Shown here one piece after another: positions 31,384 through 57,775 of a stretch of DNA of 64,000 bases. The stretch's first letter is position 1, and every line of letters starts with the position of its first letter. Both the position numbers and the translations under genes were made by a program. The notes under the pieces are model-generated. The model was not told the DNA's origin and ran no database searches. It saw only the letters and a list, made by a program, of their open reading frames with translations. This DNA comes from an uncultured Spirochaetota bacterium (GTDB taxonomy: Bacteria; Spirochaetota; Spirochaetia; SZUA-6; CAVTHK01): NCBI GenBank assembly GCA_963734495.1, contig CAVTHK010000003.1:1-64000 (forward strand). Direction: 5' to 3'.

Positions 31384-33762
31384 TTGATATATTTGACTGC
31401 TACTTTTGTTCAAGACTTGAAAAAAGCCGGAGTATATAAGCAACAATTTTCCAGGAGATCATATTTCTGGCTTTGCATTATAGTAACTATTGTATCGTGC
31501 AATCCGACAAAATATGTACCGGCAGATGAATCGCTTTTGAATGAGAATCATATCATTTTGAACAATGAAGGAATACAGAAAAGTGCCCTGAAACCATATA
31601 TTAAGCAGCAGCCGAACAAGAGGATCTTTGGCACACGGTTTTACCTTGGGCTGTATAATCTTTCGAAAATTGATAAGGAGAACTGGTTTAATAAATGGCT
31701 GAGAAATATAGGGGAGGAGCCGGTAATATTCGATCCTACTGCAACTGTCAAGACAAAGGGTCAGATAAAGTCATATGTTGCCTCGAAAGGTTATTTCGAC
31801 GGCCAGGTTTCTGAGACTATTACGACAATAAGGCAGAAGACTGACGTATTTTACAATATCGAACTGCTGCCTCCTTACACCATAAGACATATATACAATG
31901 AGATAGCTGACAGCAACATTAAGAAGCTTTATCTTTTTGATTCAATGAATTGTGTTATTGAAAGAGGGAAGCCATATGATGTTGACAAGCTGCAGGCTGA
32001 GCGGACAAGATTTGAGAGATTTGTAAAGGATCATGGATTCTACGGATTCTCAGGTGATCACATTTATTTCAGAGTTGACAGTTCTATAGGTCACAGGCAG
32101 GTTGATATAACATACGGGATAAGAAAATTCACAAAAATTGATGAATCAAGCAAGGTCAGCCTTATCCAGCACCCAATTTACAAGGTGAAGAATATTTATA
32201 TATATCCCGATTTTATCCCCAAGAACGCTCTTGAAGGAGGTGATTCTTATCTGAAAAGCCTCGATACTACCTTCTACAAAGGTTATTATTTTGTGAGCTC
32301 CGGGAAAAAAGAGAGGGTTAAATATGACCTGATACTTCAATCCATGTATCTGAAGCCCGGAGCCACCTATAATTTTACAAATACAGAACAATCACAATCC
32401 CACCTTCTTACATTAAAAGTTTACAGGCTTGTAAATATTTATTATAATGAATCATCTCCACCCGGGCCACCACAGGACATTCCGCTCGATCTTAACTGCA
32501 ATGTTCAGCTGACCCCGCTGAGCCAGCAGTCATACAAGATTGAACTGGAAGGAACAAATTCTGCCGGCAACATAGGAGGTGCGGTAAACCTGATTTATCA
32601 GCATAAGAATCTGTTTCATGGCGCCCAGCTTTTCAGCATGAAGCTTAAAGGCGCACTCGAAGCCCTGGCACAACAAAACACCGAGCTGAAAAAATCAAAA
32701 GAATTCGGACTTGAGACAAGTCTCAGGTTTCCTGAATTTCTGCTCCCTTTTATTGAGAAGGAAAAGTTCATTAAAAAGTATAATCCCTCAACAATCATTC
32801 TTGCTGCCTATAACTATCAGGATCTTCCCTTCTACACAAGGCTTATGTCTAACGCTACATTTGGGTACGACTGGAAAGCGGGTCCCTATCAGGAACATAT
32901 AGTCAGTCCTCTTCAGTTCAACATTGTCAAGATGCTGTCAATTGATCCGGCGTACGAGGCTCAGATTGAATCATCTTCATACCTTGCATATAGCTATAAG
33001 GATGTGATGATACTCGGCGGCAAGTATTCATATATCTATAATAACCAAAAGATAAACAAATCGAAGGATTACTGGTTTCTCAGGGTGAATGCCGAATCAT
33101 CGGGTAATTTGCTTGGATTGGTAAAGAGAGTATCAGGAGCGGCAAAGAATGAGGATGGTACTTATGATTTTCTCAAACAGCCATTTGCTCAGTACATACG
33201 AACGGATCTTGATCTAAGGTACAATTACAAATTCAATTCTGCTGCATCAGCAGTATACAGAGGCTTTTTCGGAATAGGCATTCCATATGGCAATTCAAAG
33301 GCACTACCCTTTGAAAAACAATATTTCAGCGGAGGTTCAAATGGAATACGGGCATGGCAGGTTAGAACCCTGGGTCCGGGATCATTTCTCCAGAGTGATA
33401 CTGTCACGTTCATCAACCAGACAGCTGATATCAAACTGGAGGCCAACGCGGAGTACAGGTTCAAACTTTTCTGGATCCTTGAAGGAGCAGTCTTCGTCGA
33501 TGCTGGCAATATCTGGACCTATAAGGATGATCCCTCAAGACCTGGTGCACAGTTTAAATTAAACAAGTTCTATAAGGATATAGCTGTCGGAACAGGGGCA
33601 GGTCTGCGGTTTGACTTCAATTTTGTGCTGGGAAGAGTTGATCTCGGCATGAAGCTGCGCGATCCGTCTATTCAGAGCGGCTCCAGGTGGATTCCTGTTA
33701 ACGGGGATATTAGCTTCAGAAGAGACTTTGCCATCGTAATAGGAATAGGTTATCCATTCTGA
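31384..33762 (+). CDS. Omp85/BamA-TamA family outer membrane protein (TamL-like lipoprotein)
   Basis: Lipobox VSC-NPTKYVP, POTRA-like region, HKNLFHGA, YFSGGSNGIRAW, FVDAGNIW, C-terminal GIGYPF; true start probably TTG ~31417, after TACTTTTG at 31401. Confidence 0.9.
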   Translation: MIYLTATFVQDLKKAGVYKQQFSRRSYFWLCIIVTIVSCNPTKYVPADESLLNENHIILNNEGIQKSALKPYIKQQPNKRIFGTRFYLGLYNLSKIDKENWFNKWLRNIGEEPVIFDPTATVKTKGQIKSYVASKGYFDGQVSETITTIRQKTDVFYNIELLPPYTIRHIYNEIADSNIKKLYLFDSMNCVIERGKPYDVDKLQAERTRFERFVKDHGFYGFSGDHIYFRVDSSIGHRQVDITYGIRKFTKIDESSKVSLIQHPIYKVKNIYIYPDFIPKNALEGGDSYLKSLDTTFYKGYYFVSSGKKERVKYDLILQSMYLKPGATYNFTNTEQSQSHLLTLKVYRLVNIYYNESSPPGPPQDIPLDLNCNVQLTPLSQQSYKIELEGTNSAGNIGGAVNLIYQHKNLFHGAQLFSMKLKGALEALAQQNTELKKSKEFGLETSLRFPEFLLPFIEKEKFIKKYNPSTIILAAYNYQDLPFYTRLMSNATFGYDWKAGPYQEHIVSPLQFNIVKMLSIDPAYEAQIESSSYLAYSYKDVMILGGKYSYIYNNQKINKSKDYWFLRVNAESSGNLLGLVKRVSGAAKNEDGTYDFLKQPFAQYIRTDLDLRYNYKFNSAASAVYRGFFGIGIPYGNSKALPFEKQYFSGGSNGIRAWQVRTLGPGSFLQSDTVTFINQTADIKLEANAEYRFKLFWILEGAVFVDAGNIWTYKDDPSRPGAQFKLNKFYKDIAVGTGAGLRFDFNFVLGRVDLGMKLRDPSIQSGSRWIPVNGDISFRRDFAIVIGIGYPF

Positions 33763-33827
33763 TCTGATACTTCCTGATCAAAATATTTTTTATTCCATGC
33801 AGCTTTTTGTCCCTGTAATTTTTTAAA

Positions 33828-34620
33828 TTGCAGTCAGTCGGACTGCATTCTGTGAGAAAACTATTGAACATTCAGCCGGTCAATGACTGGTTTGGGTACA
33901 CGCGTCGTGAGAGGAGATCAACTTTTATTCTGCTGATCATAATCCTTTTAGTAATCCTTGTAAGGTATGCGGTTCCTGAAAAAAACATTGATATTGTGAA
34001 TGCAGTTCCCGGCTATTCTGACAGCTTATGGTTTGCAAAAATTGACTGGGAAGAACAGGCTCATGAAAATATGCCCCTGGGTTTTGATCCCGGTACAGCC
34101 TCATATGATACCCTGTTAAAGATTGGGCCCGTTTCAAGGGAAGTCAAAATCCCTGTCAGCTACAGGAGCGGGGGAGGAAAACTCAGTAAGTATGATTCCG
34201 GGACTTCCCGGCAGTTAAAGATCCGGCTCAATATAAACACCTGTGATACCTCAGCGCTGATTGCTCTTCCGGGGATTGGTCCGGTTCTATCAGTCAGGAT
34301 TATAAAGTACAGGAATCTGCTGGGCGGATTTGCAAGGGTGGAACAGCTTATGGAAGTTTACGGTTTGCCGGAAGAGACTTATCAAATGATCAGGGAAAGA
34401 GTATTTGCTGACAGTTCCGAAGTCAGGAAGACCAGGATTAATTCATCTGATTATAAGGGATTAAGCCGCATCCCTTATATTGAAAAATATGAAGTATCGG
34501 CTATTCTCAAGTACAGGGAGTTGGCTGGCAGGATAAGACAGCATGGATGATCTGAAGGAGAATAAGATTCTTACTCCGGAAAAGGGGAAGAAGATCGGGG
34601 CATATATTGATTTTCAATAA
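33828..34620 (+). CDS. Helix-hairpin-helix (ComEA-like) DNA-binding protein; C-terminal frameshift
   Basis: FGYTRRERR, N-terminal TM, LNINTCD..LIALPGIGPVLS.RIIKYR.LLGGF. Confidence 0.8.
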
Positions 34621-34779
34621 ACGGAGTCACCCCATGACCCTCTCTGCTGAGGACACGAACTCACCCCCTGCCCGATAGCCGTCAACCTAAGGTATCTTAA
34701 AAAAGCTTTGTAGGAGGATCAGTAAACGCAAACGGATCTAAAACTGAAGCTTTATTTATAACTCTCCCCTCCTTTTGAA

Positions 34780-35728
34780 AGTAATTTCCTAGTTTATGGC
34801 AAAATGATTATATTATGGGAAAAAAAATGACATGGAACTAATCAAAATTACTGAGAAGCTTAACACTAAAGGAAAGTGTATGGCTTATCTTGAGAAACAA
34901 AGATGGTCTGATTTGCCCATTTGTCCCTATTGTAATTCAACGAGAAGCTCGAGGAAGACACAGGAGTTCAGGCATACTTGCCATAACTGTAAGAGATCTT
35001 ATAGTGTACTGGTAGGAACAATTTTTGAATCTACCAAGCTTCCAATTACAAAATGGTTTTTTGCCATATGTCTTATATTAAATGCAAAAAAAGGAATATC
35101 ATCTCTTCAACTAGCTAGAGATTTGGATGTTAATAAAAATACTGCCTGGTTTTTGCAGAAGCGAATCCGTAAAGCAATGAAGGATGACAATTCAATCTTA
35201 AGTGGAATAGTAGAGATTGATGAGACCTATGTTGGCGGAAGTATTTCTAATAAGCACTATTTAACAAAGCTTGAATCTGGCAAATATTATAAGTCTGGAA
35301 TGGAGCATATGGTCCCCGTATTGGGGATGATTCAACGAAAAGGTAAAATAATACTAAAAGTACTAGAGAAGGCATCTGGTAAAGAAATAAAACCTTATAT
35401 AAAATCAAAGATCGCATCAGGCAGCACAATAATCACTGACGGGTTTGGTGGATATTACGGGTTAAATGATCATTTTGAAAATCACATAATATTAAATCAC
35501 AAACAAAGCAAAAGAAGTATTAATCAATATAATACGAGTACTCTTGAAGGATTTTGGACCTTAGTCAAAAGATCGTTATTCGGTCAATATCATAAGATTT
35601 CAAAAGTCCATTTACAAGAATATTTAAATGAGCTGGCATTTAAATACAATTATAGAAAAATAAATATGTTTAAATTATTGCTTAACAATCTATTAGAACC
35701 AAAGTATGCCTTTAGCTAGGAAATTACT
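34780..35728 (+). mobile_element. IS1595-family insertion sequence, complete (949 bp)
   Basis: TIRs AGTAATTTCCTAGTTTATGGCA / TGCCTTTAGCTAGGAAATTACT; 8-bp TSD CTTTTGAA at 34772-34779 and 35729-35736. Confidence 0.93.
34832..35719 (+). CDS. IS1595 (ISXO2-like) DDE transposase
   Basis: Zn ribbon CPYC/CHNC, GTIFEST.LP..KWF, KKGISSLQLAR HTH, VEIDETYVGG, ITDG, LEGFW, YLNELAFKYN. Confidence 0.93.
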   Translation: MELIKITEKLNTKGKCMAYLEKQRWSDLPICPYCNSTRSSRKTQEFRHTCHNCKRSYSVLVGTIFESTKLPITKWFFAICLILNAKKGISSLQLARDLDVNKNTAWFLQKRIRKAMKDDNSILSGIVEIDETYVGGSISNKHYLTKLESGKYYKSGMEHMVPVLGMIQRKGKIILKVLEKASGKEIKPYIKSKIASGSTIITDGFGGYYGLNDHFENHIILNHKQSKRSINQYNTSTLEGFWTLVKRSLFGQYHKISKVHLQEYLNELAFKYNYRKINMFKLLLNNLLEPKYAFS

Positions 35729-35811
35729 CTTTTGAAGGAGGGGTGGCCGGAGTACTATGCTATTAAAAGAGTTGCAATGCACTGTACCGGCCGGGGTGGT
35801 TGATTTGATAT

Positions 35812-35999
35812 TCATATTGATGCTTTTTTATGCTTTTCATTATTGATAACTTTCCTTATCTCATTTTTTAAGTATTGAGGGTCTTTAAACACAAATCTGT
35901 TTTCAAACCTTAATACTGTGAATCCTAAGTAGACCTGTTCCTGAGAGATGATCTGAAGGATTTAAGGCCTTTTATGTTGAAGAGATTTTTGTCTTTCAT
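35812..35999 (-). pseudogene. Internally deleted DUF559 endonuclease gene
   Basis: Manual translation: MKDKNLFNIKGLKSFRSSLRNRST joined out of frame to LGFTVLRFENRFVFKDPQYLKNEIRKVINNEKHKKASI*; these match the N- and C-termini of DUF559 proteins, and the central core is missing. Confidence 0.7.
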
Positions 36000-36316
36000 A
36001 GATATGAAGGTAAGAAAAAGAAATAAATCAACCACCCCGGCCGGGAAATAAACTTTGTAAACATAAGATAATCAATTGTCCCGGCGCCTTCCCTGCAGCC
36101 TGGCTCCTCCCTAAAATTGCCCACTGGGCAATTTCTTAACGGTCAGCCCCCTTCAAAAGGAGGGGAAACTTTTTCTAATCTACCCGTTTTAATAATACCC
36201 TTAAGTTGACGGCTATGCCCCCTGCCCCCTCTCTGCTGGCGCAAAGAGGGGGTAAGAACGCTGTGAAAATAGTTCTGGTTAGCCAAACTGGCTGATGTAA
36301 CAATTATAAATTAACA

Positions 36317-36712
36317 TTGATGTCATTAAGAACCTATAATCGGTTAAAGTCAATAAGGTCCCTTGCGAGAGGATTAAGGAAAGAGGCAACTGAATCTGAA
36401 AAACTTTTATGGAAGAGGCTCAGAAACAGACGACTTGCATGCTATAAATTTCTACGTCAGCACCCTGTGATATATAAATCAGATTACACTGGAATGCAAT
36501 TCTTTATTGCAGATTTTTATTGCCACGCTAAAAGAACAGTAATTGAGATAGATGGTCAGGTTCATCTGGAACAGCAGGAATATGATCAGTTCCGGGACGA
36601 AGTTATGGCCGAAAAGGGACTGCATATTTTAAGAATTAAAAATGAGGGGTTATCAGATATGGAAAAGGTCCTTGAAAAAATCGAATCATTTTTGGATTCC
36701 GTCTCTTCATAA
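36317..36712 (+). CDS. DUF559 (Vsr/very-short-patch-repair-like PD-(D/E)XK) endonuclease
   Basis: ARGLRKEATESEKLLWKRLRNRRL, KFLRQHP, FIADFYC, VIEIDGQVH, YDQFRD, LHILRIKN. Confidence 0.88.
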   Translation: MMSLRTYNRLKSIRSLARGLRKEATESEKLLWKRLRNRRLACYKFLRQHPVIYKSDYTGMQFFIADFYCHAKRTVIEIDGQVHLEQQEYDQFRDEVMAEKGLHILRIKNEGLSDMEKVLEKIESFLDSVSS

Positions 36713-37001
36713 CAATATATTAATCAGCCATGTATCCCCCTCTTTGCGTCAGCAGAGAGGGGGATTAAGGGGGTGAGTTCGTTGGACTTAAAGGGATTAA
36801 GGGGGTGAGTCCGTTGATCCCGAAGCCTTATTTGGCTGATCCGTTAAAAATTGTAAATTATTTGGAAACAGTCTTATTATTTCGTAATTTTAATACACAG
36901 AAAACCAAAAAGGGATAAACAGAATTTAATAATCTATTATAAAAAAGAGCATCATGATTAATTTTAATCCATAAAAGTTTTGAAAAGAATTTTTCTATTT
37001 C

Positions 37002-37009
37002 TAACTTTG
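37002..37009 (+). promoter_or_regulatory. Bacteroidota -7 promoter box for rpsU
   Basis: TAACTTTG 30 nt upstream of the rpsU ATG, with TTTG upstream at ~36979. Confidence 0.65.
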
Positions 37010-37038
37010 CGCCTCGTTTAAAAACAGAATTTTAGATT

Positions 37039-37230
37039 ATGATTATTGTACCATTAAAAGAAGGCGAGAATATTGAACGGGCATTAAAGAAGTTCAAGAG
37101 AAAGTTTGAAAAGACTGGAGTAATTCGTGAACTAAGGTCACGTCAGGCTTTTATTAAGCCTTCAGTACGCCGGAGAGAAGAGATCAAGAAGGCTATGTAC
37201 GTTCAGAAGCTGCAGGAAACCGAAGAGTAA
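37039..37230 (+). CDS. rpsU: 30S ribosomal protein S21
   Basis: MIIVPLKEGENIERALKKFKRKFEKTGVIRELRSRQAFIKPSV. Confidence 0.96.
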   Translation: MIIVPLKEGENIERALKKFKRKFEKTGVIRELRSRQAFIKPSVRRREEIKKAMYVQKLQETEE

Positions 37231-37284
37231 TTCGGTTGTCCGTGCTCTCATTTATTATTAACAAACAGATACGGGGGTTCCTTC

Positions 37285-38175
37285 ATGAGTTATAAGGAAT
37301 CGTTCTTACAATATCTGCAAATCGAAAAGCGGTATTCACCTCATACTGTCAGGTCTTATTTGAATGATCTGGATCAGTTTTTTTTGTTTTTAACCTCGCA
37401 GGGACAGCCTGCATGATCCGTTTCTGTGACTTCCCATGATATCAGGGCATGGGTGGTCAGCATGCTCGACGGCAACTATTCTGCGGTAAGCGTTCACAGG
37501 AAGATCTCCTGTCTGAGGGTTTTCTACCGTTATCTGAGAAAAGAGGGTGTCATGAAGAGTGATCCGCTTGAAAAGGTGTCCCTGCCAAAAAGGAAAAAGA
37601 GTCTTCCGGTGTTTGTTGAGGAGGGTGCTCTCGATGAATTGCTTGACAATTACAGTTTTGGTGATGATTTTGCAGGCATAAGGAACAGGACAATAATTGA
37701 GATGCTTTATCTGACAGGGATGAGGAGGGCAGAGCTGATTGGTCTCAGGAACAGCGGATGTTGACCTGGCTGAAGGTTCCGTAAAGGTGACCGGAAAAAG
37801 GAACAAGCAGCGGATCATACCTGTTGTGAAGCCGTTTATGGAAAGGCTTAAGGAATATATTAGCCCTGAGGGATAAGGAGATACGCATCAGCGTCTGAAG
37901 GCTGGTTTTTTGTCACCGATCGAGGGAACAAGTTGTATGATAAATATGTTTATAATGTAGTTAACAGGTATCTCGCGATGGTAACTACGATAGAGAAAAA
38001 GAGCCCTCATATACTAAGGCACACTTTTGCCACACACATGCTCAACAGGGGCGCTGATCTGAATTCGATAAAGGAGTTGCTGGGTCATGCAAATCTTTCT
38101 GCGACACAGATTTATACTCATAATACATTTGAGAAACTCAAGAAAATATATAAACAGGCTCATCCGAGAGCTTAA
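37285..38175 (+). CDS. xerC: Tyrosine recombinase XerC-like; frameshifted
   Basis: [58 protein letters not shown]; conserved rpsU-xerC-hpf order. Confidence 0.85.
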
Positions 38176-43493: not shown

Positions 43494-50379
<6,886 letters not shown>

Positions 50380-52795
50380 TGTCGATCGCGTGGAGTTTCC
50401 TGAAGGAGTCGAGGATCTGGAACATCAGGCTTTCGAAGTCGGCGCCGGCCTCGGCGCACTGTCGGCGCAGCGCGACCCATCGGTCGTCCTTGACCCGCTC
50501 TTCCCACTTCTCGTAGGAGATCCGCACGAGACCGCACGCCTCCAGCCCCGGCAGGTTGACACGCCAGGCGTTACCCAGGTCGGAGAGGAGGAGGTATTTC
50601 AGGAGGGTCTTCATGATCTCCTGGAGCGATCTGACGCGGGAATCGAACACCTCTCCGGACTCGGGGATCACCGCATAGTCCGCCAACTTCAGCCCGAGAC
50701 GATCGAAGACTTCGGACTCGACCATGGAGAAGGGGATGGGCCCCTTCTCCCGCAACGCCTTCACGAGGGCGGCTCGGAGTCGGACGGTTGAGATGAAGTC
50801 GTTGAAATGTCCCGACTGCAGGGAGGAATCCTGGCGGTTGTCGGAGAAGCTGAGGAGCTTGGTGTCCTTGTCGGCGAAGCCGAGCCCTTTCATGGCGTCC
50901 AGAATGGCAAGGGAGATGACGGTGGTGGTGGTGGACCTCCCCTCGAGCCCGATGCGGGAGAGTTTGGCGAACTCGCTGGTCTGATGGTGGTAGAGGTCGC
51001 CACTCGTGGGGTCATAGATGAACTTCACGGGGAGGTACCACCCCTTGAGGCCACTGCCCGTGTCAGTGGCGAATCCGTCCCGATACGCGCCGTCGACGAA
51101 GTAGGTAATCTCGGAAGGGAACTTGCCCGAGGTACTCCTTTTTCAGCGTGAGAACACCACCGACCTCGCGCGTGTACTCCGCCGGCAGATTGGCGAGGTC
51201 CTCGTCGGGCCTGCCATGCGTGCTCGTCGCAGAGAAGGTACCCGTACTCGCGACTGTCTTTCTCCTCCTCGGGGAGGCTGTCGTCGCTGAAATCCCGCGC
51301 CTCGAGTCTGCCCTCCGCAAGGTTCTTCTTGACGCAGAGGAACGGCTTTCCCGAGGAGCGGTTGAAAACCACGGGGTACAAAGGATATGTCGTTTCCGCG
51401 ATTGTTCGGGACGGGACCGCCGTCAAAGTCGATCAGCCTCTCGCTTCCCCGGTGGAGAGACACCGAGAGAGAGGCGGTCTGCGCGATGAACTGGTGGAGC
51501 TTGAAGGGCAGGACGAATGCAGGCCGGGAGGTCGGGTCGGTGTGTTCCCTCGCAATCCTCTCGTTCACCGCGGCAATCCGAGTGAACAGGGATTCGAGCG
51601 ACGCGCGACATGCGGTCTCATTCCGGCCCGACGCCTCCCGAAGGAGCAAGCACATCTCGCTCGCGGTCCTGGCAGGTCCGCGCTGATAGCCGCTACCATC
51701 CGGCGTCAGGGCCACCACACGCTCGACCCACCGAAAGAGGGGGGCGGCGCACAGCTCCTCCGCGCTTGCCGCGGCCGTCGGTGTGTCGATAGCCGCCGCG
51801 AGCTCCTCGGACCCGGGGTTCGGATGGCGGACCGAGATGGCCGTCAGCGATTCCTCGATCACCTGAGCCGGCGTAAAGCGGTCACCGAAGAAGGTTGTTG
51901 CCACTTCGGCGACACGGGTCTTGCGATCCGCCGAGGTCGCGCCGCCGGTCATCGTGGCCGATGTTCCGATGCAGACGATCGGATGCGCGCACTCCGCCTT
52001 GATCCGGCGGATGAGCAGCGCGACGTCCGCGCCCTGCCGACCTCGGAAGGTGTGAAGCTCGTCGAATGCGATGAACTTCAGATTCTTGAAGATAGCTTCC
52101 CTGATATCGGAGTCTCTCTGCCGAGTCAGGATCAGCTCGAGCATCATGTAGTTGGTGAGGAGGACATGGGGAGGCGCGTTCCGCATGGTGTCCCGCTTGT
52201 CCTCCTCCTCCTGCCCGGTGTACTGGCCGAATGAGAAGGGGAAATCCCGATGCGTACTCGCCTTATAGCGCTCCGCGTACTTTTCGATCTCACCCGTCTG
52301 CGAATTGATGAGCGCATTCATGGGATAGCAGACAAGACCGACGACGCCCGGGCCGGGGTGTCGCAGTATCTCGTTGAAGATCGTGCCGAAGAACGTGAGC
52401 GACTTGCCCGAGCCCGTGCCCGAGGTCACGACGAAACCTTTGCCGGCAGCCCCCAGGCGAAGCGCTTCCTCCTGGTGTCGGTGCAACGTAAACCCCGAGA
52501 AGACAGATGCCATTGCGGGCTCAAGAACCCCCTCGGTCACCAGGGACTCGATGCGTGCGCCGGGTTCATACGACGGATTGAACTGGATCAAGGGCTCGGG
52601 CCACATCGTCTTGAGCCTGCCCTCATCCTGCAAGGCAGCTTCGATCTGAGGGTCGTCGATGTCGATGAAGCTACGGGAGAACGACTGGTACCGGTCCATC
52701 ACGTCCCGGTGGAACCGGAAGACGTCGGTTGTTGGAGTCACGGCCGGATTCTCCTTTGGCGCCACATCAGCTTCGTTCACTGCCCGTCCGGGCAT
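50380..52795 (-). CDS. Large DEAD/DEAH-box SF2 helicase of the type found in defence islands (N-terminal ~800 aa; truncated at the junction, frameshifted)
   Basis: [86 protein letters not shown]. Confidence 0.85.
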
Positions 52796-52803
52796 GGCGC
52801 GAC

Positions 52804-54573
52804 CTATGCCCCTCCCTTTCTCACGACGAATTCGTTCATCTTCGCCGATAGAGCCGCACGTCGGGTCTTGAGAAACTCGCGATACGCGTCAATGTTCCAG
52901 AAAGAGGGATCCACGGGGACCGCCTGCGATTCGAGCGCACCGGCGCCCTGCGTGTCGATGATCGCGGGGATGTATTCCGCAGGGCTCTTGTTGCTGATCC
53001 GCCGGTTAGTCTGTCCCGTAATGAAAGCCATGTTGGCGATCTCGTTTATCTCGCCGGTCTCAAAACCTTTGTCCTTCAGGATAGACTTGGGGAAGATGTG
53101 ATGCCACTGTATGAAGTGAAGCCGCCCCTGGTGCGTAAGGGACAGACCAAGACCGCTGAACCAGTCGCGAGCACCAGCATCTTTGAGTGCCAGGTACGCC
53201 AGAGAGAACAGAGGACTATTCGCGCCACGCGAAGCAAGGTCTTCTGGCTCTATCGTCAGGCGCCCAAACTGCCTCTTGAGCGGTTCCATCAGCGACTCAA
53301 CCGACCCGGACCGGAACACTATCGAAAGATCCTCGTTGAGGAGCGTCTCGCTGGAGCCGCGAGAATAACGTCCGCGTGCGTTTGCGACGAGTAGCCAATG
53401 CATCAAGGCCTGCTGCTCCGCCTGACTCAGCTTGTTGTCTTTTTCCCTGCTCACCGCCGCCAGCAAGACGATGAAGAACGGTGAAGACAACAGCGACTCG
53501 TCTTCAATTCCAGCGTTGGTTCTCAGGAAATTGATCGCAAAGCGCAGGCCTTCTCTTGCCTCAGTCCACCCATCCTTGAGCCTGGATATCGGAGTAGAGC
53601 CGACTGTGCGAAAGAGGCACTGATGAGTCGCCTGCACTACCATGGATCTCACCAAGAGACCGAAGTCCAGGGTGAACCAGCTCTGCTCGCATTCCTCCTG
53701 AAAGGCCTCGAAATCCGCAAGCAGATTCGGCCACCGGGACGTTATTTGGGCTAGCGCGAGGTCTGACGACCTGAGTTTTGCCCCAAGTGAGTTCACTCGG
53801 ACAAAGATCTCGGTGACCTCCTCGTAGCTCATCGATCGCTCGAGCACGTGGACCACGTAGGTGTAGTCCTTGATCTGCCTCAGCCTGTTCAACCGCTGCG
53901 TGTATTTCTCGTATCGAGGGTCATCGAAAGTCGTGACGCCTGCTTTGCGGAGGAACTCTGAGTCGCTCGCGCTCTTGAACACTCGGCTTACCGAAACCCA
54001 CTTCGGAGACGCGGCTATGCTCTTGCTCGCGACTATGAAAGTTCTCGATGAAAAGCGTGCCGCCACGTCAACTTCGTTTTCGCCGTTTTCTTCCTCGTCG
54101 TCCGCAATTTCGTCCTCCGACAAGGTCGGCGAATCATCGTCCGTCTCCACCTCCGCGACTTCAACAGGAGGGCCATCCGGGTGGTCAAGGTTGAACAGAA
54201 TGTCGATCGGTTTCTTGCGACGCCGAACGGTGACGTGCTCTCCGTTGATTACCGCGGTCAAGGATGTCAGGCGCTGCTGACCGTCCAACAGGAGCTTCCG
54301 ACCGACAAAGGCGTTCGTGTCCTGAGCGACGGCCGAATCTCGAGTGGGGATTGGCTCGTCGGTTTCCCACATGAGAATCGAGCCACTTGGGTAGCCGCGG
54401 TAGAGAGAATCCAGCAGGTCCCGCACCCTCGTGGAGCGCCACACGAAATGCCGTTGTATCTCGGGCAGCCGCAACTCGCCTCGCTTGTACATGTCAACCA
54501 GAGTGCTGATTGGGATGTTTTGCTGCTGCAACTTGTTCGCCTCCGGAGCTGGATTCCTCCCCACGGCCTGCAA
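52804..54573 (-). CDS. DUF262 (ParB-like) plus C-terminal HNH-like domain protein, GmrSD/SspE-like
   Basis: LPEIQRHFVW, DSLYRGYPSG, LLLDGQQRLTSL, EIFVRVNSLG; C-terminal WHHIFPK ... IANMAFITGQTNRRISNK. Confidence 0.85.
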   Translation of the reverse strand: MQAVGRNPAPEANKLQQQNIPISTLVDMYKRGELRLPEIQRHFVWRSTRVRDLLDSLYRGYPSGSILMWETDEPIPTRDSAVAQDTNAFVGRKLLLDGQQRLTSLTAVINGEHVTVRRRKKPIDILFNLDHPDGPPVEVAEVETDDDSPTLSEDEIADDEEENGENEVDVAARFSSRTFIVASKSIAASPKWVSVSRVFKSASDSEFLRKAGVTTFDDPRYEKYTQRLNRLRQIKDYTYVVHVLERSMSYEEVTEIFVRVNSLGAKLRSSDLALAQITSRWPNLLADFEAFQEECEQSWFTLDFGLLVRSMVVQATHQCLFRTVGSTPISRLKDGWTEAREGLRFAINFLRTNAGIEDESLLSSPFFIVLLAAVSREKDNKLSQAEQQALMHWLLVANARGRYSRGSSETLLNEDLSIVFRSGSVESLMEPLKRQFGRLTIEPEDLASRGANSPLFSLAYLALKDAGARDWFSGLGLSLTHQGRLHFIQWHHIFPKSILKDKGFETGEINEIANMAFITGQTNRRISNKSPAEYIPAIIDTQGAGALESQAVPVDPSFWNIDAYREFLKTRRAALSAKMNEFVVRKGGA

Positions 54574-55340
54574 CGAAATAGTTTCGGGTTCACGGGGTTG
54601 TGATCCGATACCCGACAGAACTGCTGAAGTAGAATAGACCAGCTTCCTCCAACCTGCAAGAATATCAGCTCGCGGACGCCGCCGAGCGCCAATCCATCGT
54701 TGGTCTGGCCACCTTTACCCAGTTTCCTCCGAGCGATCCCGAAACACCATCGCAGTCCGAGGCTCCGCGGCGCCCACTCCCCGTACTGGCTCGTTCGGTG
54801 AAGCATTTTTCCGCTCCAGGCCCCTGGACGCCACCTTCAGCGTCTACTTCCACGACAACCTGATGGGCGCCTGGCCTTGCACGACTTTGCCGAGATGATC
54901 AGGAGGCGCTTCGGGGTGGACACGGTGCGCCTTGAGCTTTTCGACGAGGCAGTTGTGTTCCGCAGCCGTGCGGTCCCGGACCTTCTGACAACAAGAGCTC
55001 CGGCCGGAACGCCTGACCCTCCCCCGGAGAGGACCTATAGGGCGCCTCAGAGGTTGGGGAGCCCGGGCGTCCTGCCCGGGCTCCCCAACCAAAGGACTCG
55101 CGAGCGTGGGACACATGGAGGTGGCCCACGCGTCTGCCTGGGGCGGGATGCCCCGTGTGCGGCGGGCGCCTACCGCCGAAGGGCCAGCCGCTTGCGGAAG
55201 GCGCTGTGCCGAAGGCACACGCCGCGCTCGGTGAGGGCTCCCTGCGGCCGTCGGCACCATCGGCACCGGCGTTGACCTGGGGTTACTGCATGATATCCTC
55301 GGCATCGAAGGCTTGACCTGCAAGGAGCGATAGTGGGCCG

Positions 55341-55631
55341 GCAATCATAACGACTTTCGGGCTCTTGTGGGACAACAGGTTGGTGTTCTGGAAGGGCAAG
55401 AAGGGACCTGGCGGTGCGCCATTTCAGTTGCTGGGCTCAACACGGCCGAATGGCAAAGCGGACGGTGCCGTAGATTTCTATGGACAGATCGGATTCTATG
55501 CGCTCTACGATGACAACTACAACATCGTCTATGCTGGTCAGGCCGGGGGAGCGAACCACAAACATAGTAGTCGTCTTCGCAACCATGTGACAGACGTGCT
55601 CATGGGTCGTAGGGTGGGTCCCACCTGCTAA
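55341..55631 (+). pseudogene. Truncated GIY-YIG-like nuclease fragment
   Basis: IITTFGLLW...VDFYGQIGFYALYDDNYNIVYAGQAG...RLRNH; no clean start, and it ends soon after the R..H helix. Confidence 0.55.
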
Positions 55632-56180
55632 GAGCATCCTCGGGGCTGATGGGGTCGAAGAGGTGATCCGTTGGCGACCGCGCGCCACCCGCCTGACTGC
55701 GATGCTACAGGTCGGTCGGCGGCGAACTGGCTGTCCCGCAGATGGTAGGTACCGCACACAAGGTGGAGGCTGGGTTTGGTGTGCGCTCAGGCTCGCATAC
55801 GGGCGTCATGGACACGACGTCGGCCGGCGTACTCGCGTAGCGAGCCCAGGCGAAGTAGTCCGGAATGCCGCGTGCAGCCATCGTTTTCCTCCCGCTCCTG
55901 CTACTGGCTCGGCCGTCGCCAAAGTGCCGAAGTACGGGGCCGGCGGCCGGCGCGCGTGAGCGGGCGCAGGGGCCGCGAGGCCTGGCGTACTCGCCAGGCC
56001 CCCACGGGTCCGAGGCGCCGGGCCCAGAAAAGCCATCGGTCGCCACAGGGCGGCGCCGAGGACGGAACCCCCGAAGCACGCGACCCCGAGCCCGTGCGGG
56101 GCAGTCTCGCCGCCACAGGCGCACCTCGCTCGGCCTGCAACACAGGCCAGCTCGGGGGCACGCCCAATCCGTGAAGACGC

Positions 56181-56209
56181 AAAAAAGCCCTCGCCGCGCG
56201 GCGAGGGCT
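56181..56209 (-). terminator. Intrinsic terminator downstream of the 56233 gene
   Basis: Palindrome AGCCCTCGCCGCGCGGCGAGGGCT with an A6 run on the plus strand (U-tract on minus). Confidence 0.8.
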
Positions 56210-56232
56210 CGCATGGCGCGACGGGAGCCCGC

Positions 56233-56718
56233 CTACATCCAGAGCAGCACCTGCGCTCCGAGTATGCCGGAACTGGTAGTAAGGTCGAAGCCCGTGAAGT
56301 CCATGATGTAGCTCAACCCCACCGAGAGCTTGCCGAGCTTGACGTCGGCGCTGAGCTTGGCGTTCAGGCCGGCCTGCAGCGGGCTGCTCTCGCCGAAGTT
56401 GTACACGAAGTTGGGGCCGACCCCCGCGGACAGCCGCAGGAGCGGGAGGTCGAGCGCGACGCCACCGTCGAGGTAGATGTTCAGGCTCTGGACATCGCCG
56501 GCCGCGTACATGACGAGGGCCTCGCCCTGGAAGAGGCTCAGCTTGAGCCTCGCGTCGCCGCCGAACGTGAACTGGTTCACGTTGAGGTCATCCTTGCTCA
56601 CGCTCTGGCCCAGAAGGTACGGCGACTTCATCATGGCCGCGCCGCCGATGCCGAGCTCCGCGAACGCCGCCGCCGGCAGCAGGGCGATGAGGACGCCGAT
56701 CAGGAGCGCTTTCTTCAT
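56233..56718 (-). CDS. Secreted small beta-barrel-like outer membrane protein, function unknown
   Basis: MKKALLIGVLIALLPAAAFA signal peptide; alternating hydrophobic strands; aromatic near the C-terminus (LLWM). Confidence 0.7.
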   Translation of the reverse strand: MKKALLIGVLIALLPAAAFAELGIGGAAMMKSPYLLGQSVSKDDLNVNQFTFGGDARLKLSLFQGEALVMYAAGDVQSLNIYLDGGVALDLPLLRLSAGVGPNFVYNFGESSPLQAGLNAKLSADVKLGKLSVGLSYIMDFTGFDLTTSSGILGAQVLLWM

Positions 56719-56817
56719 ACCCACCTCTCTCGATGCAATGTAAGCGCGTCTTGTTGACGGCTTCAGTCAGGAATGTAGCACCTTTCCGGGTCCCGACAAC
56801 CCGCCGGCGGCGGCCGG

Positions 56818-57775
56818 TCACGCGAAGAAGCGCGACACCCAGTGGCCGGCGGAAACCTCCCGCAGGCCCGGACGCGGCTGCGCCGCCTCCGCCGCTTCGT
56901 CCGCGGAATCGATCGGCGGCACCGTCGGGTCAGGCGGCTCGCCGAACCGGCCGGCGCCGCGCCCGCGGCTCCCCTTCGCGCCGAGGCGCGGGATGGAGCC
57001 GTAGAGGGCGCGCGTGTACGGGTGCGCGGGAGAGCGCGCGAGCTCGCGCGCGGGCGCCTCCTCGACCAGCAGGCCGCGGTACATGACTCCGACGCGGTCG
57101 CACGCGTAGGAGACCACGTTCAGGTCGTGAGCGATCAGGAGCATCGACAGGCGGTGCTGCCCCTTGAGGTCCGTGAGCAGGTTCAGGATCTGGCCCTGGA
57201 TCGAGACGTCGAGCGACGAGACCACCTCGTCGCAGATGAGGAGCTCGGGCCGCGTGATCAGGGCACGCGCGATGGCGATGCGCTGCCTCTGCCCGCCGGA
57301 GAAGTCCGGGGGCCTGCGCTCCAGGTCGTCCGGGCTGCAGGCCGACCTCCCGCAGGGTCGCGGCCGCCCGCTCGGCGGCCTCCCGCCTGCCCGGCCACAG
57401 GGGCGACCAGCGGTAGCCCGCGGTGAGCACCTCCAGGACGGTCATGCGCGGGTTGAGCGAGCGGGCCGGGTCCTGGAAGACGTAGCGGATCCTCGAGCGC
57501 AGCCGCCGCAGGGCCTCGCCGCGCGCGGCGCGGGCATCGTGCTCGCGGCCTTCGCGGTCGGCATAGCGGATCGCGCCGCCGTCCGCGTCGTACAGCCTTA
57601 CGATCATGCGCGCCGTCGTGGTCTTGCCGCACCCGGATTCGCCGACGAGGCCGTAGGTCTCTCCCGGCAGCACGTCGAAGCTCACTCCGTTGACCGCGTA
57701 GATGAAGCGTCCCGACCGCGCGAAAAAGCCCGCCTCGAGGGCGAAGCGCTTGCGCACGCCGCGGAGCGTCAGCAT
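56818..57775 (-). CDS. Oligopeptide ABC transporter ATP-binding protein (OppF/DppF-like); frameshift ~57335
   Basis: GESGCGKTT, VFQDP, FSGGQRQRIAIAR, CDEVVSSLDVSIQGQILNLL, HPYTRAL. Confidence 0.88.

Follow-up and report, generated by a model that had tools for sequence, protein, structure and literature searches.

The window analysed here is a stretch of 64,000 nucleotides (contig CAVTHK010000003.1 of assembly GCA_963734495.1, filed under an uncultured Spirochaetota bacterium, positions 1 to 64,000). Between its comEA and rpsU genes lies a resident gene for a DUF559 protein, which is bracketed by inverted arrays of short repeats, and a 1544-bp element occupies the left-hand array. The element has terminal inverted repeats of its own, is flanked by an exact 10-bp direct repeat, carries the remains of a second, different DUF559 gene and is interrupted by an insertion sequence (IS) of the IS1595 family. 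It is very probably a decayed, non-autonomous cassette, similar to the mobile insertion cassettes (MICs) of the MIC231 type, from a branch of the IS4 family that resembles IS231 and is frequent among Bacteroidota. The features are collected in Table 1. Loci in other genomes or metagenome contigs are designated by L and a number, genomes by G and a number; G000 is the window's own assembly and C3 the window's contig.

The outer ends of the element are formed by an 18-nt inverted repeat, ATAGCCGTCAACYTAAGG, found as ATAGCCGTCAACCTAAGG at 34675-34692 (+) and as ATAGCCGTCAACTTAAGG at 36199-36216 (-), the two being complementary at 17 of 18 positions. When one adjoining base is added on each side, the repeats become 19-nt inverted ends that delimit the 1544 bp, and CCCCCTGCCC stands on both sides immediately beyond the terminal G...G. 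A chance origin of the ends was considered and rejected: the 18-nt pattern has two matches in the window where 0.05 are expected, and none of 100 shuffled sequences gave two. The first-pass annotation of this DNA had described an element that lacks a transposase, has ends of its own and is flanked by a 10-bp target duplication, and in this it was correct. Of 162 distinct ends, 152 have C immediately outside ATAGCC, 8 have T and 2 have G, and the true terminus of the family is therefore CATAGCCGTCAACYTAAGG. The right end in the window is a perfect family end. The left end, which begins with G, is an exception to the family C.

Table 1. Features of the element, its nested insertion sequence and its surroundings (positions in the window)
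Feature	Position	Strand	Remarks
Earlier ACGAACTCACCCCC unit of the left-hand array	34622-34654		
Target: left-hand ACGAACTCACCCCC.. repeat unit of the array bracketing the resident DUF559 gene	34655..34673	+	
Left copy of the 10-bp target duplication CCCCCTGCCC	34664..34673	.	Identical 10-mer flanks the autonomous copy L034
Entire non-autonomous IS231-type cassette (MIC-like or like a MITE, a miniature transposable element with inverted repeats)	34674..36217	+	1544 bp
Left terminal inverted repeat GATAGCCGTCAACCTAAGG	34674..34692	+	Terminal base G
Hairpin H1, left half (CCCCTCCTTTTGAA)	34766..34779	+	Split by the IS1595; final 8 nt are the left IS1595 duplication
IS1595-family insertion sequence, ends AGTAATTTCCTAG / CTAGGAAATTACT	34780..35729	+	950 bp; 13-nt perfect inverted ends
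IS1595 transposase open reading frame (ORF)	34832..35719	+	295 aa, apparently intact; Pfam DDE_Tnp_IS1595 128.9 bits; Zn_ribbon_IS1595; NCBIfam NF033547 190 bits
Hairpin H1, right half (CTTTTGAAGGAGGGG)	35730..35744	+	Initial 8 nt are the right IS1595 duplication
Inner inverted repeat, left arm (CCGGCCGGGGTGGTTGATTT)	35787..35806	+	Brackets the DUF559 cargo; 20 nt, 100% complementary; arms also in L145 and L146
DUF559 cargo gene, C-terminal part (..GFTVLRFENRFVFKDPQYLKNEIRKVI..)	35815..35927	-	PF04480
DUF559 cargo gene, N-terminal 24 codons (MKDKNLFNIKGLKSFRSSLRNRST)	35928..35999	-	Frame different from that of the C-terminal part
Inner inverted repeat, right arm	36025..36044	+	
Extra 54-bp module	36086..36139	+	Absent from L055, L145 and L146; common to the family elements L057, L037 and L047
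Internal hairpin H2 (CCCCCTTCAAAAGGAGGGG)	36147..36165	+	Inverted copy of H1
Right terminal inverted repeat	36199..36217	-	Minus strand reads CATAGCCGTCAACTTAAGG
Right copy of the 10-bp target duplication	36218..36227	.	
Resident DUF559 gene, outside the cassette	36317..36712	+	131 aa; PF04480 94 bits
Right-hand inverted repeats of the resident DUF559 unit	36725..36814	-	Hairpin 36736-36763; GGGGGTGAGTTCGT units 36768-36782 and 36800-36814

After removal of the IS1595 and of one copy of its duplication, 586 bp of the element remain, and these correspond to a broken version of an arrangement that is intact in other loci. The stretch 35730-36217 is collinear, at 70-84% identity, with L055 (682 bp), L145 and L146 (707 bp) and L073; against L055 the values are 75% over 200 bp, 84% over 160 bp and 82% over 82 bp. 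L055 contains the whole DUF559 ORF (PF04480, 116.6 bits), and L145 and L146, both of which are found in genome G041, overlap PF04480 matches of 115 and 113 bits. The layout common to these cassettes is a terminal repeat, the hairpin CCCCTCCTTTT(T)GAAGGAGGGG, the arm CCGGCCGGGGTGGTTGATT, the DUF559 gene, the inverted arm, the hairpin again and the second terminal repeat. In the window the C-terminal piece of the cargo gene, taken as 35815-35961 (-), matches PF04480 below the cut-off (E 0.005, 17.2 bits), and its DNA is 84% identical to an intact DUF559 cassette, which confirms that the cargo is a DUF559 remnant. At the junction of its two parts, at about 35925-35929, 199-203 bp are absent relative to L055 and L146. 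A public metagenome contig matches both sides of this gap with one differing letter on each side and, at 35925/35927, is longer by 203 letters. Pieces nearly identical to the cassette arms are present in contigs of four public metagenome runs, which have no cover on the flanking chromosomal genes and hence no bearing on whether the host site is filled or empty there. A second type of DUF559 gene is also found inside the family ends, in L028 and as short fragments in L013 and L122; it is 43% identical to the resident DUF559 of the window, and the two types found within such ends are 31% identical to each other.

The insertion sequence nested in the cassette shows nothing unusual for its family. 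Elements of the IS1595 family usually duplicate 8 bp of their target. The nested element has all the family features: a DDE transposase recognised by the Pfam and NCBIfam IS1595 models, an N-terminal zinc ribbon, short inverted ends and the duplication of 8 bp, which reads CTTTTGAA and lies at 34772-34779 and 35730-35737. Hairpin H1, which it splits, is unbroken in L055, L145 and L146 as well as in one public metagenome contig whose match ends before 35729. The earlier proposal that the IS1595 is an unrelated, later insertion is upheld by its own duplication and by the three cassettes in which the hairpin is intact. Three public metagenome runs, from soil and bog, have contigs with pieces identical to this IS1595 (no differing letter over 206-366 bp), and in a fourth run, from freshwater sediment, its right end is joined to different DNA. 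The nested IS1595 is likely to be active in nature. Its DNA has no copy in five Bacteroidales genomes, where a single 35-bp match was the only one.

The place into which the cassette has inserted can be described in some detail. The left flank ACGAACTCACCCCCT (34655-34669) has a perfect inverted partner at 36768-36782 and a second, 93% identical one at 36800-36814, and the stretch 36225-36263 pairs in inverted orientation with 36725-36763. The target is thus a repeat with hairpin character, as the first reading of the sequence had it, and the mirror partners of the left flank are indeed present to the right of the resident DUF559 gene. A metagenome contig from a close relative, L138, which was found through its ComEA protein, has the same gene order as the window (BamA-like, comEA, DUF559, rpsU, xerC, hpf), with identities of 91% for the BamA-like protein, 78% for DUF559 and 70% for ComEA. 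Between comEA and DUF559 this contig has uninterrupted ACGAACTCACCCCC units; the unit ACGAACTCACCCCCAACCCCCTCTCTGCTGACGCAAAGAGGGGG stands at the place of insertion, and the last unit continues into the hairpin found in the window. From the 10-bp repeat onward, the right flank in the window agrees with the L138 unit at 38 of 42 positions (a manual count on the alignment), and the left flank ends with a 14-nt unit start that is also present in L138. The comparison supports a true insertion, with a 10-bp duplication, that would have occurred after the lineages of the window and of L138 split. A ComEA search of 401 genomes of the order to which G041 belongs gave only 2 matches at E <= 1e-30, none of them closer than L138.

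On either side of the resident DUF559 gene stand a hairpin and an array of short repeats, which read ACGAACTCACCCCC to the left of the gene and the complement to the right of it, and this bracketing is kept in L138 (4392-4500 and 4985-5180), there with more units, despite the ComEA identity of 70%. Genome G044, another of the Bacteroidales, contains 11 copies of AACTCACCCCC, of which 5 lie within about 300 bp of one of 13 DUF559 matches by comparison of coordinates, and one more is situated downstream of the comEA orthologue. No copy of AACTCACCCCC was found in G041, where the two DUF559 genes that lie outside cassettes have C-rich inverted repeats with hairpins directly on their flanks. Across the genomes examined, the ACTCACCCCC repeat is largely associated with DUF559 and is not genome-wide. 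The target had been called REP-like, after the repetitive extragenic palindromic (REP) sequences. The positions of the repeats in G044 and G041 retain the hairpin repeat in that description and replace genome-wide dispersal by a location mostly beside DUF559 genes, so that the "REP-like" target is largely a DUF559-associated repeat. Downstream of the comEA orthologue, locus L144 (G044:C42:21300-22200) has one AACTCACCCCC unit together with two IS231-type ends. The locus downstream of comEA seems to attract such elements repeatedly. No Rfam family was matched at E <= 1 in the region 33500-37500, and none reached its gathering score in 48500-57500.

The ends of the element are widespread. A scan with the 18-mer, in which each species was represented by one genome, gave at least 124 loci. 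Among the 124 listed, 108 come from Bacteroidota by record title (Bacteroidales, Chitinophagaceae, Cytophagales and Mucilaginibacter) and the remaining 16 from other or unclassified bins, in which mis-binning is possible. Cultured carriers among the Bacteroidota include Terrimonas ferruginea DSM 30193. Many of the matches are situated at contig ends, and many contigs break at these sequences. Five Bacteroidales genomes to which these loci led contain 6, 15, 16, 57 and 101 ends at no more than 2 mismatches, with 0-1 for the reversed control, and elements of 171-590 bp with such ends are numerous in other genomes. The target duplications were surveyed in 49 distinct convergent end pairs, including the window, L145 and L146. 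An exact abutting direct repeat is present in 17 of them, and its length is 10 bp in 14 pairs, 9 bp in two and 11 bp in one. Exact duplications also flank copies without DUF559, namely elements of 171-286 bp and autonomous copies, and one autonomous copy, L034, is flanked by the same 10-mer as the cassette in the window. Of the 17 targets as rebuilt, six (L012, L064, L077, L098, L112 and L059) are palindromes struck at the centre. Most of the others are C- or G-rich, and several of these, the window, L034 and L120 among them, lie at the foot of a CCCCC...GGGGG hairpin. Palindromes of the form GGTTCGTG-N4-CACGAACC are among the targets.

The first-pass annotation had given the mobiliser as unknown. 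This part did not survive, and the ends are not of a new kind: in other Bacteroidota, genes for IS4-family transposases stand between identical ends. Where two ends lie 1505-1800 bp from each other, in L012, L019/L020, L034/L035, L064, L015 and L045, they enclose one long transposase ORF, and the predicted proteins are 420-446 aa long (440 aa in L012, 446 aa in L034). Two of these six pairs, L012 and L034, were scanned with profiles and scored 202 and 197 bits (cut-off 115) with NCBIfam NF033592, "IS4 family transposase", and 91 and 77 bits with Pfam DDE_Tnp_1; the motif Y-x2-R-x3-E-x6-K, or Y(2)R(3)E(6)K, is present in both translations. A tblastn search of plasmids with the L034 transposase matched 860 records, of which 705 are from Bacillus. 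A spread of 40 among the 860 has identities of 23-37%, the near-full-length Bacillus rows being 27-32% identical over 91-97% of the query, and the annotations among the matches listed include IS231C, IS231B, IS231-related, ISBth4, ISBce2 and ISBce10. The closest among these plasmid matches are transposases of the IS231 type from the Bacillus cereus group. A large protein collection contains 1419 relatives at E <= 1e-20, mostly on contigs of 1.5-2 kb, and such names as these proteins bear are "IS4 family transposase", "Transposase DDE domain", "hypothetical" and, once, a UPF0235/DUF167-family label.

Members of the IS4 family encode a DDE transposase with the Y(2)R(3)E(6)K motif in a single ORF and duplicate roughly one helix turn (about 10 bp) of their target. 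Within this family, the IS231 subgroup is characterised by the ends CAT-------AA--TAA---, by direct repeats of 10-12 bp and by a size of 1450-5400 bp (De Palmenaer et al. 2008, PMC2266710, Table 1). The same paper describes the subgroup as almost exclusively confined to the B. cereus group, as unusual in carrying extra DNA and passenger genes, and as having target specificity. Many transposase pairs within the subgroup are more than 50% identical. The family end CATAGCCGTCAACYTAAGG matches all 8 fixed positions of the IS231 signature, and both the 10-bp duplications and the length of the autonomous copies fall within the ranges of the subgroup. The end of IS231C in plasmid pBMB422 reads CATGCCCATCAACTTAAG and is identical to the consensus obtained here at 15 of 19 positions by manual count. 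In that plasmid (L131, 1891-1971) a second, inverted IS231-like end is situated 19 nt from the right end of IS231C, tail to tail. The ends in the window therefore match those of an already described IS family, an outcome that the annotation had itself named as refuting its reading and as making the element "an ordinary MITE". MITEs are small and non-coding, lie in numerous copies in a genome and have terminal inverted repeats and a target duplication; the cassette in the window goes back to a coding element.

Several observations weigh against the interpretation as an IS231-type insertion that has since decayed. Between the transposases and proteins of the IS231 type the identity is only about 30%, and the probable placement in the subgroup is therefore based on the signature of the ends, the length of the duplications and the best hits among plasmids. 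An exact direct repeat is missing from 32 of the 49 end pairs. In several of these, namely L030, L037, L050, L055 and L076, one flank is an inverted copy of the other, as where CCCCAACCC to the left is matched by its complement to the right, and this sometimes extends over at least 40 nt; recombination between copies residing in similar target sequences would be the more likely cause, rather than insertion into extruded hairpins. The number of ACGAACTCACCCCC-type units is three in L138 and two in the window, and for this reason it stays ambiguous which L138 unit is the exact orthologue. No cognate transposase was detected by tblastn in G000, which consists of another, high-GC organism plus about 50 kb of the low-GC host. 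The terminal G of the left end may be an assembly error, because the low-GC part of the assembly has indels in comEA, xerC and rpoC.

The composition of the assembly bears directly on the last two points. Contig C3 has a GC content of 40-47% up to about 50.0 kb and of about 60-75% from 50.5 kb onward, and the other 17 contigs have 66-69%. The switch lies inside rpoC, where two ORFs (47366-48640 and 48645-50516) hold Rpb1 domains 1-5 and then stop, to be followed by high-GC genes for a DEAD-helicase and GmrSD-like proteins. Contig C3 probably joins DNA of two organisms wrongly at a conserved gene. In G000 both the pattern of the ends and the 1.7-kb stretch as a whole occur a single time, and DNA of the window found no match in 40 relatives of G000, which are relatives of the high-GC organism. 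Because the contig is composite, these searches of the own genome and of its relatives concern another organism and say little on copy number. Several reading frames of housekeeping genes in the low-GC part are broken: the 3' end of comEA (34530-34620) carries an additional base compared with L138, rpoC falls into two ORFs at 48640, and the xerC-like gene (37285-38175) has several compensating indels where L138 has an intact ORF of 295 aa. This pattern suggests error-prone assembly more than pseudogenes, and single-base calls in the low-GC part, the terminal G among them, are unsafe.

The following history would account for the locus. An IS4-family DDE transposase, supplied by an autonomous relative elsewhere, would have bound the two CATAGCCGTCAACYTAAGG ends, judging from what is known of the family. 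The cassette would then have been cut out and pasted with a 10-bp stagger, and would have landed in the C-rich CCCCCTGCCC at the foot of a hairpin, within the inverted ACGAACTCACCCCC array around the resident DUF559 gene, between comEA and rpsU. Its original cargo was a second, different gene for a DUF559 nuclease (Vsr-like, of the PD-(D/E)XK type) lying between inverted, hairpin-bearing arms. At a later time the IS1595 entered the loop of the left internal hairpin with an 8-bp duplication. Also later, about 200 bp of the cargo gene were lost, and the left terminal base is now G where the family has C. As far as can be judged from the sequence, the copy in the window is most likely immobile now, because of the nested IS1595, the loss of about 200 bp of cargo and the terminal G. 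The "MITE-like vehicle" of the earlier description is accordingly better called a copy that looks dead.

A more active role for the element is improbable. According to this alternative, it is still a working MITE or MIC that is moved today by a transposase encoded elsewhere in the host genome. Its right end and its 10-bp duplication are indeed flawless, the near-identical arm pieces in the four metagenome runs indicate that the family was recently active, and the host genome is almost wholly unsampled. Set against these points are the left terminal G at a position where 152 of 162 ends have C, the 950-bp foreign insertion and the deletion of about 200 bp in the interior, and the lack of a cognate transposase in the DNA at hand.

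It is still less probable that the cassette spread by means of its nuclease, through homing-like break repair at the hairpin repeats, the IS231-type ends being incidental. Such a process would suit the observation that inverted hairpin repeats bracket several DUF559 genes in G044 and every one of the four examined in G041. In the parts of the literature that touch on these proteins, the VSR/DUF559/DUF2726 group is said to include a group I intron homing endonuclease (PMC3424549), and DUF559 proteins are listed as enriched among predicted inversion targets with an odds ratio of 14.3 (PMC9881135). The exact 10-bp duplications that abut the IS231-type ends are, however, the signature of DDE transposition and not of homing, and they are found equally at copies without DUF559. 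The notion that the outer repeats are part of the IS1595, as a long IS1595 or as a composite with cargo, and that its transposase, the sole intact transposase gene within the unit, moves the whole 1.5 kb can be set aside almost with certainty, as the IS1595 has perfect 13-nt ends and an 8-bp duplication of its own, L055, L145 and L146 share the outer ends and arms without any IS1595 and with the hairpin unbroken at the insertion point, identical IS1595 pieces occur in other metagenome contexts, and the outer ends accompany IS4-family transposases.

With the element taken as a decayed cassette of the IS231 type, its significance lies mainly in the family to which it belongs, the copy in the window being dead and of little consequence by itself. 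The IS231 subgroup and the idea of the mobile insertion cassette are extended from the Bacillus cereus group to the Bacteroidota, where the ends are frequent, and a likely mobiliser can be named for the widespread small, hairpin-rich elements of uncultured Bacteroidales. The targets are a clear example of insertion into the centre of palindromes or into the feet of hairpins. For the annotation of metagenome-assembled genomes, the ends are an aid, as is the observation that the inverted repeats accompanying DUF559 genes attract insertions. This branch of IS231-type elements is not yet described in Bacteroidota; nothing was found in print on IS231-type elements in that phylum or on the repeat that brackets DUF559. 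A broader idea, which is offered as speculation and is rather doubtful, is that IS231-like elements of Bacteroidota have specialised on hairpin repeats, above all on the inverted C-rich arrays around DUF559 nuclease genes, and, to judge from the two DUF559 types within such ends, have captured a unit of "DUF559 plus hairpin arms" more than once, the nuclease and its repeats being a functional pair, loosely comparable to REP-associated tyrosine transposases and REP sequences, that serves the transposon both as landing pad and as cargo. A three-way association of nuclease, repeat and transposon was not found in print.

Comparison with known systems begins with the resident unit. In RAYT/REP systems (RAYT, REP-associated tyrosine transposase) the gene for an HUH transposase is accompanied by REP sequences. 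The resident DUF559 unit resembles them in that a single small gene of nuclease type is bracketed by inverted arrays of short, GC-rich repeats, which serve as landing sites for mobile DNA. It differs in that DUF559 has the PD-(D/E)XK fold, is not an HUH transposase and is not known to act on the repeat that brackets it, which in the genomes examined lies mostly beside DUF559 genes.

The closest relatives of the mobile part are the elements of the IS231 subgroup. The likeness comprises the end signature, the agreement with IS231C at 15 of 19 end positions, duplications of about 10 bp, a size of 1.5-1.8 kb, a single-ORF DDE transposase with the YREK motif, the best plasmid hits and non-random insertion. 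IS231A reportedly has the target consensus GGG(N)5CCC, a palindrome of a G-tract and a C-tract, and is said to prefer the ends of Tn4430, a result attributed to Hallet and colleagues in 1994. The elements described here differ from the subgroup in their hosts, which are Bacteroidota, in a protein identity of about 30%, and in their targets, which are perfect palindromes hit at the centre or C-rich hairpin feet.

The cassette itself is best compared with MIC231. A MIC has two IS231-type inverted repeats, no transposase and at least one coding sequence, measures about 0.7-3 kb and can be moved in trans (Chen et al. 1999; De Palmenaer et al. 2004, both as summarised in PMC6199540). The intact cassettes L055, L145 and L146 have this structure; in the window the coding sequence is broken. 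The likeness to MIC231 extends to the two IS231-type repeats, the missing transposase, the passenger coding sequence, the length of about 0.7 kb, the modular build and the autonomous relative in the same genome. The last point concerns G041, which contains the autonomous copy L034 and the two cassettes L145 and L146, and it is their co-occurrence in this one genome that suggests mobilisation of the cassettes in trans. The difference from MIC231 lies in the passenger, which is here a DUF559 nuclease gene placed between long inverted hairpin arms, and in the broken state of the copy in the window.

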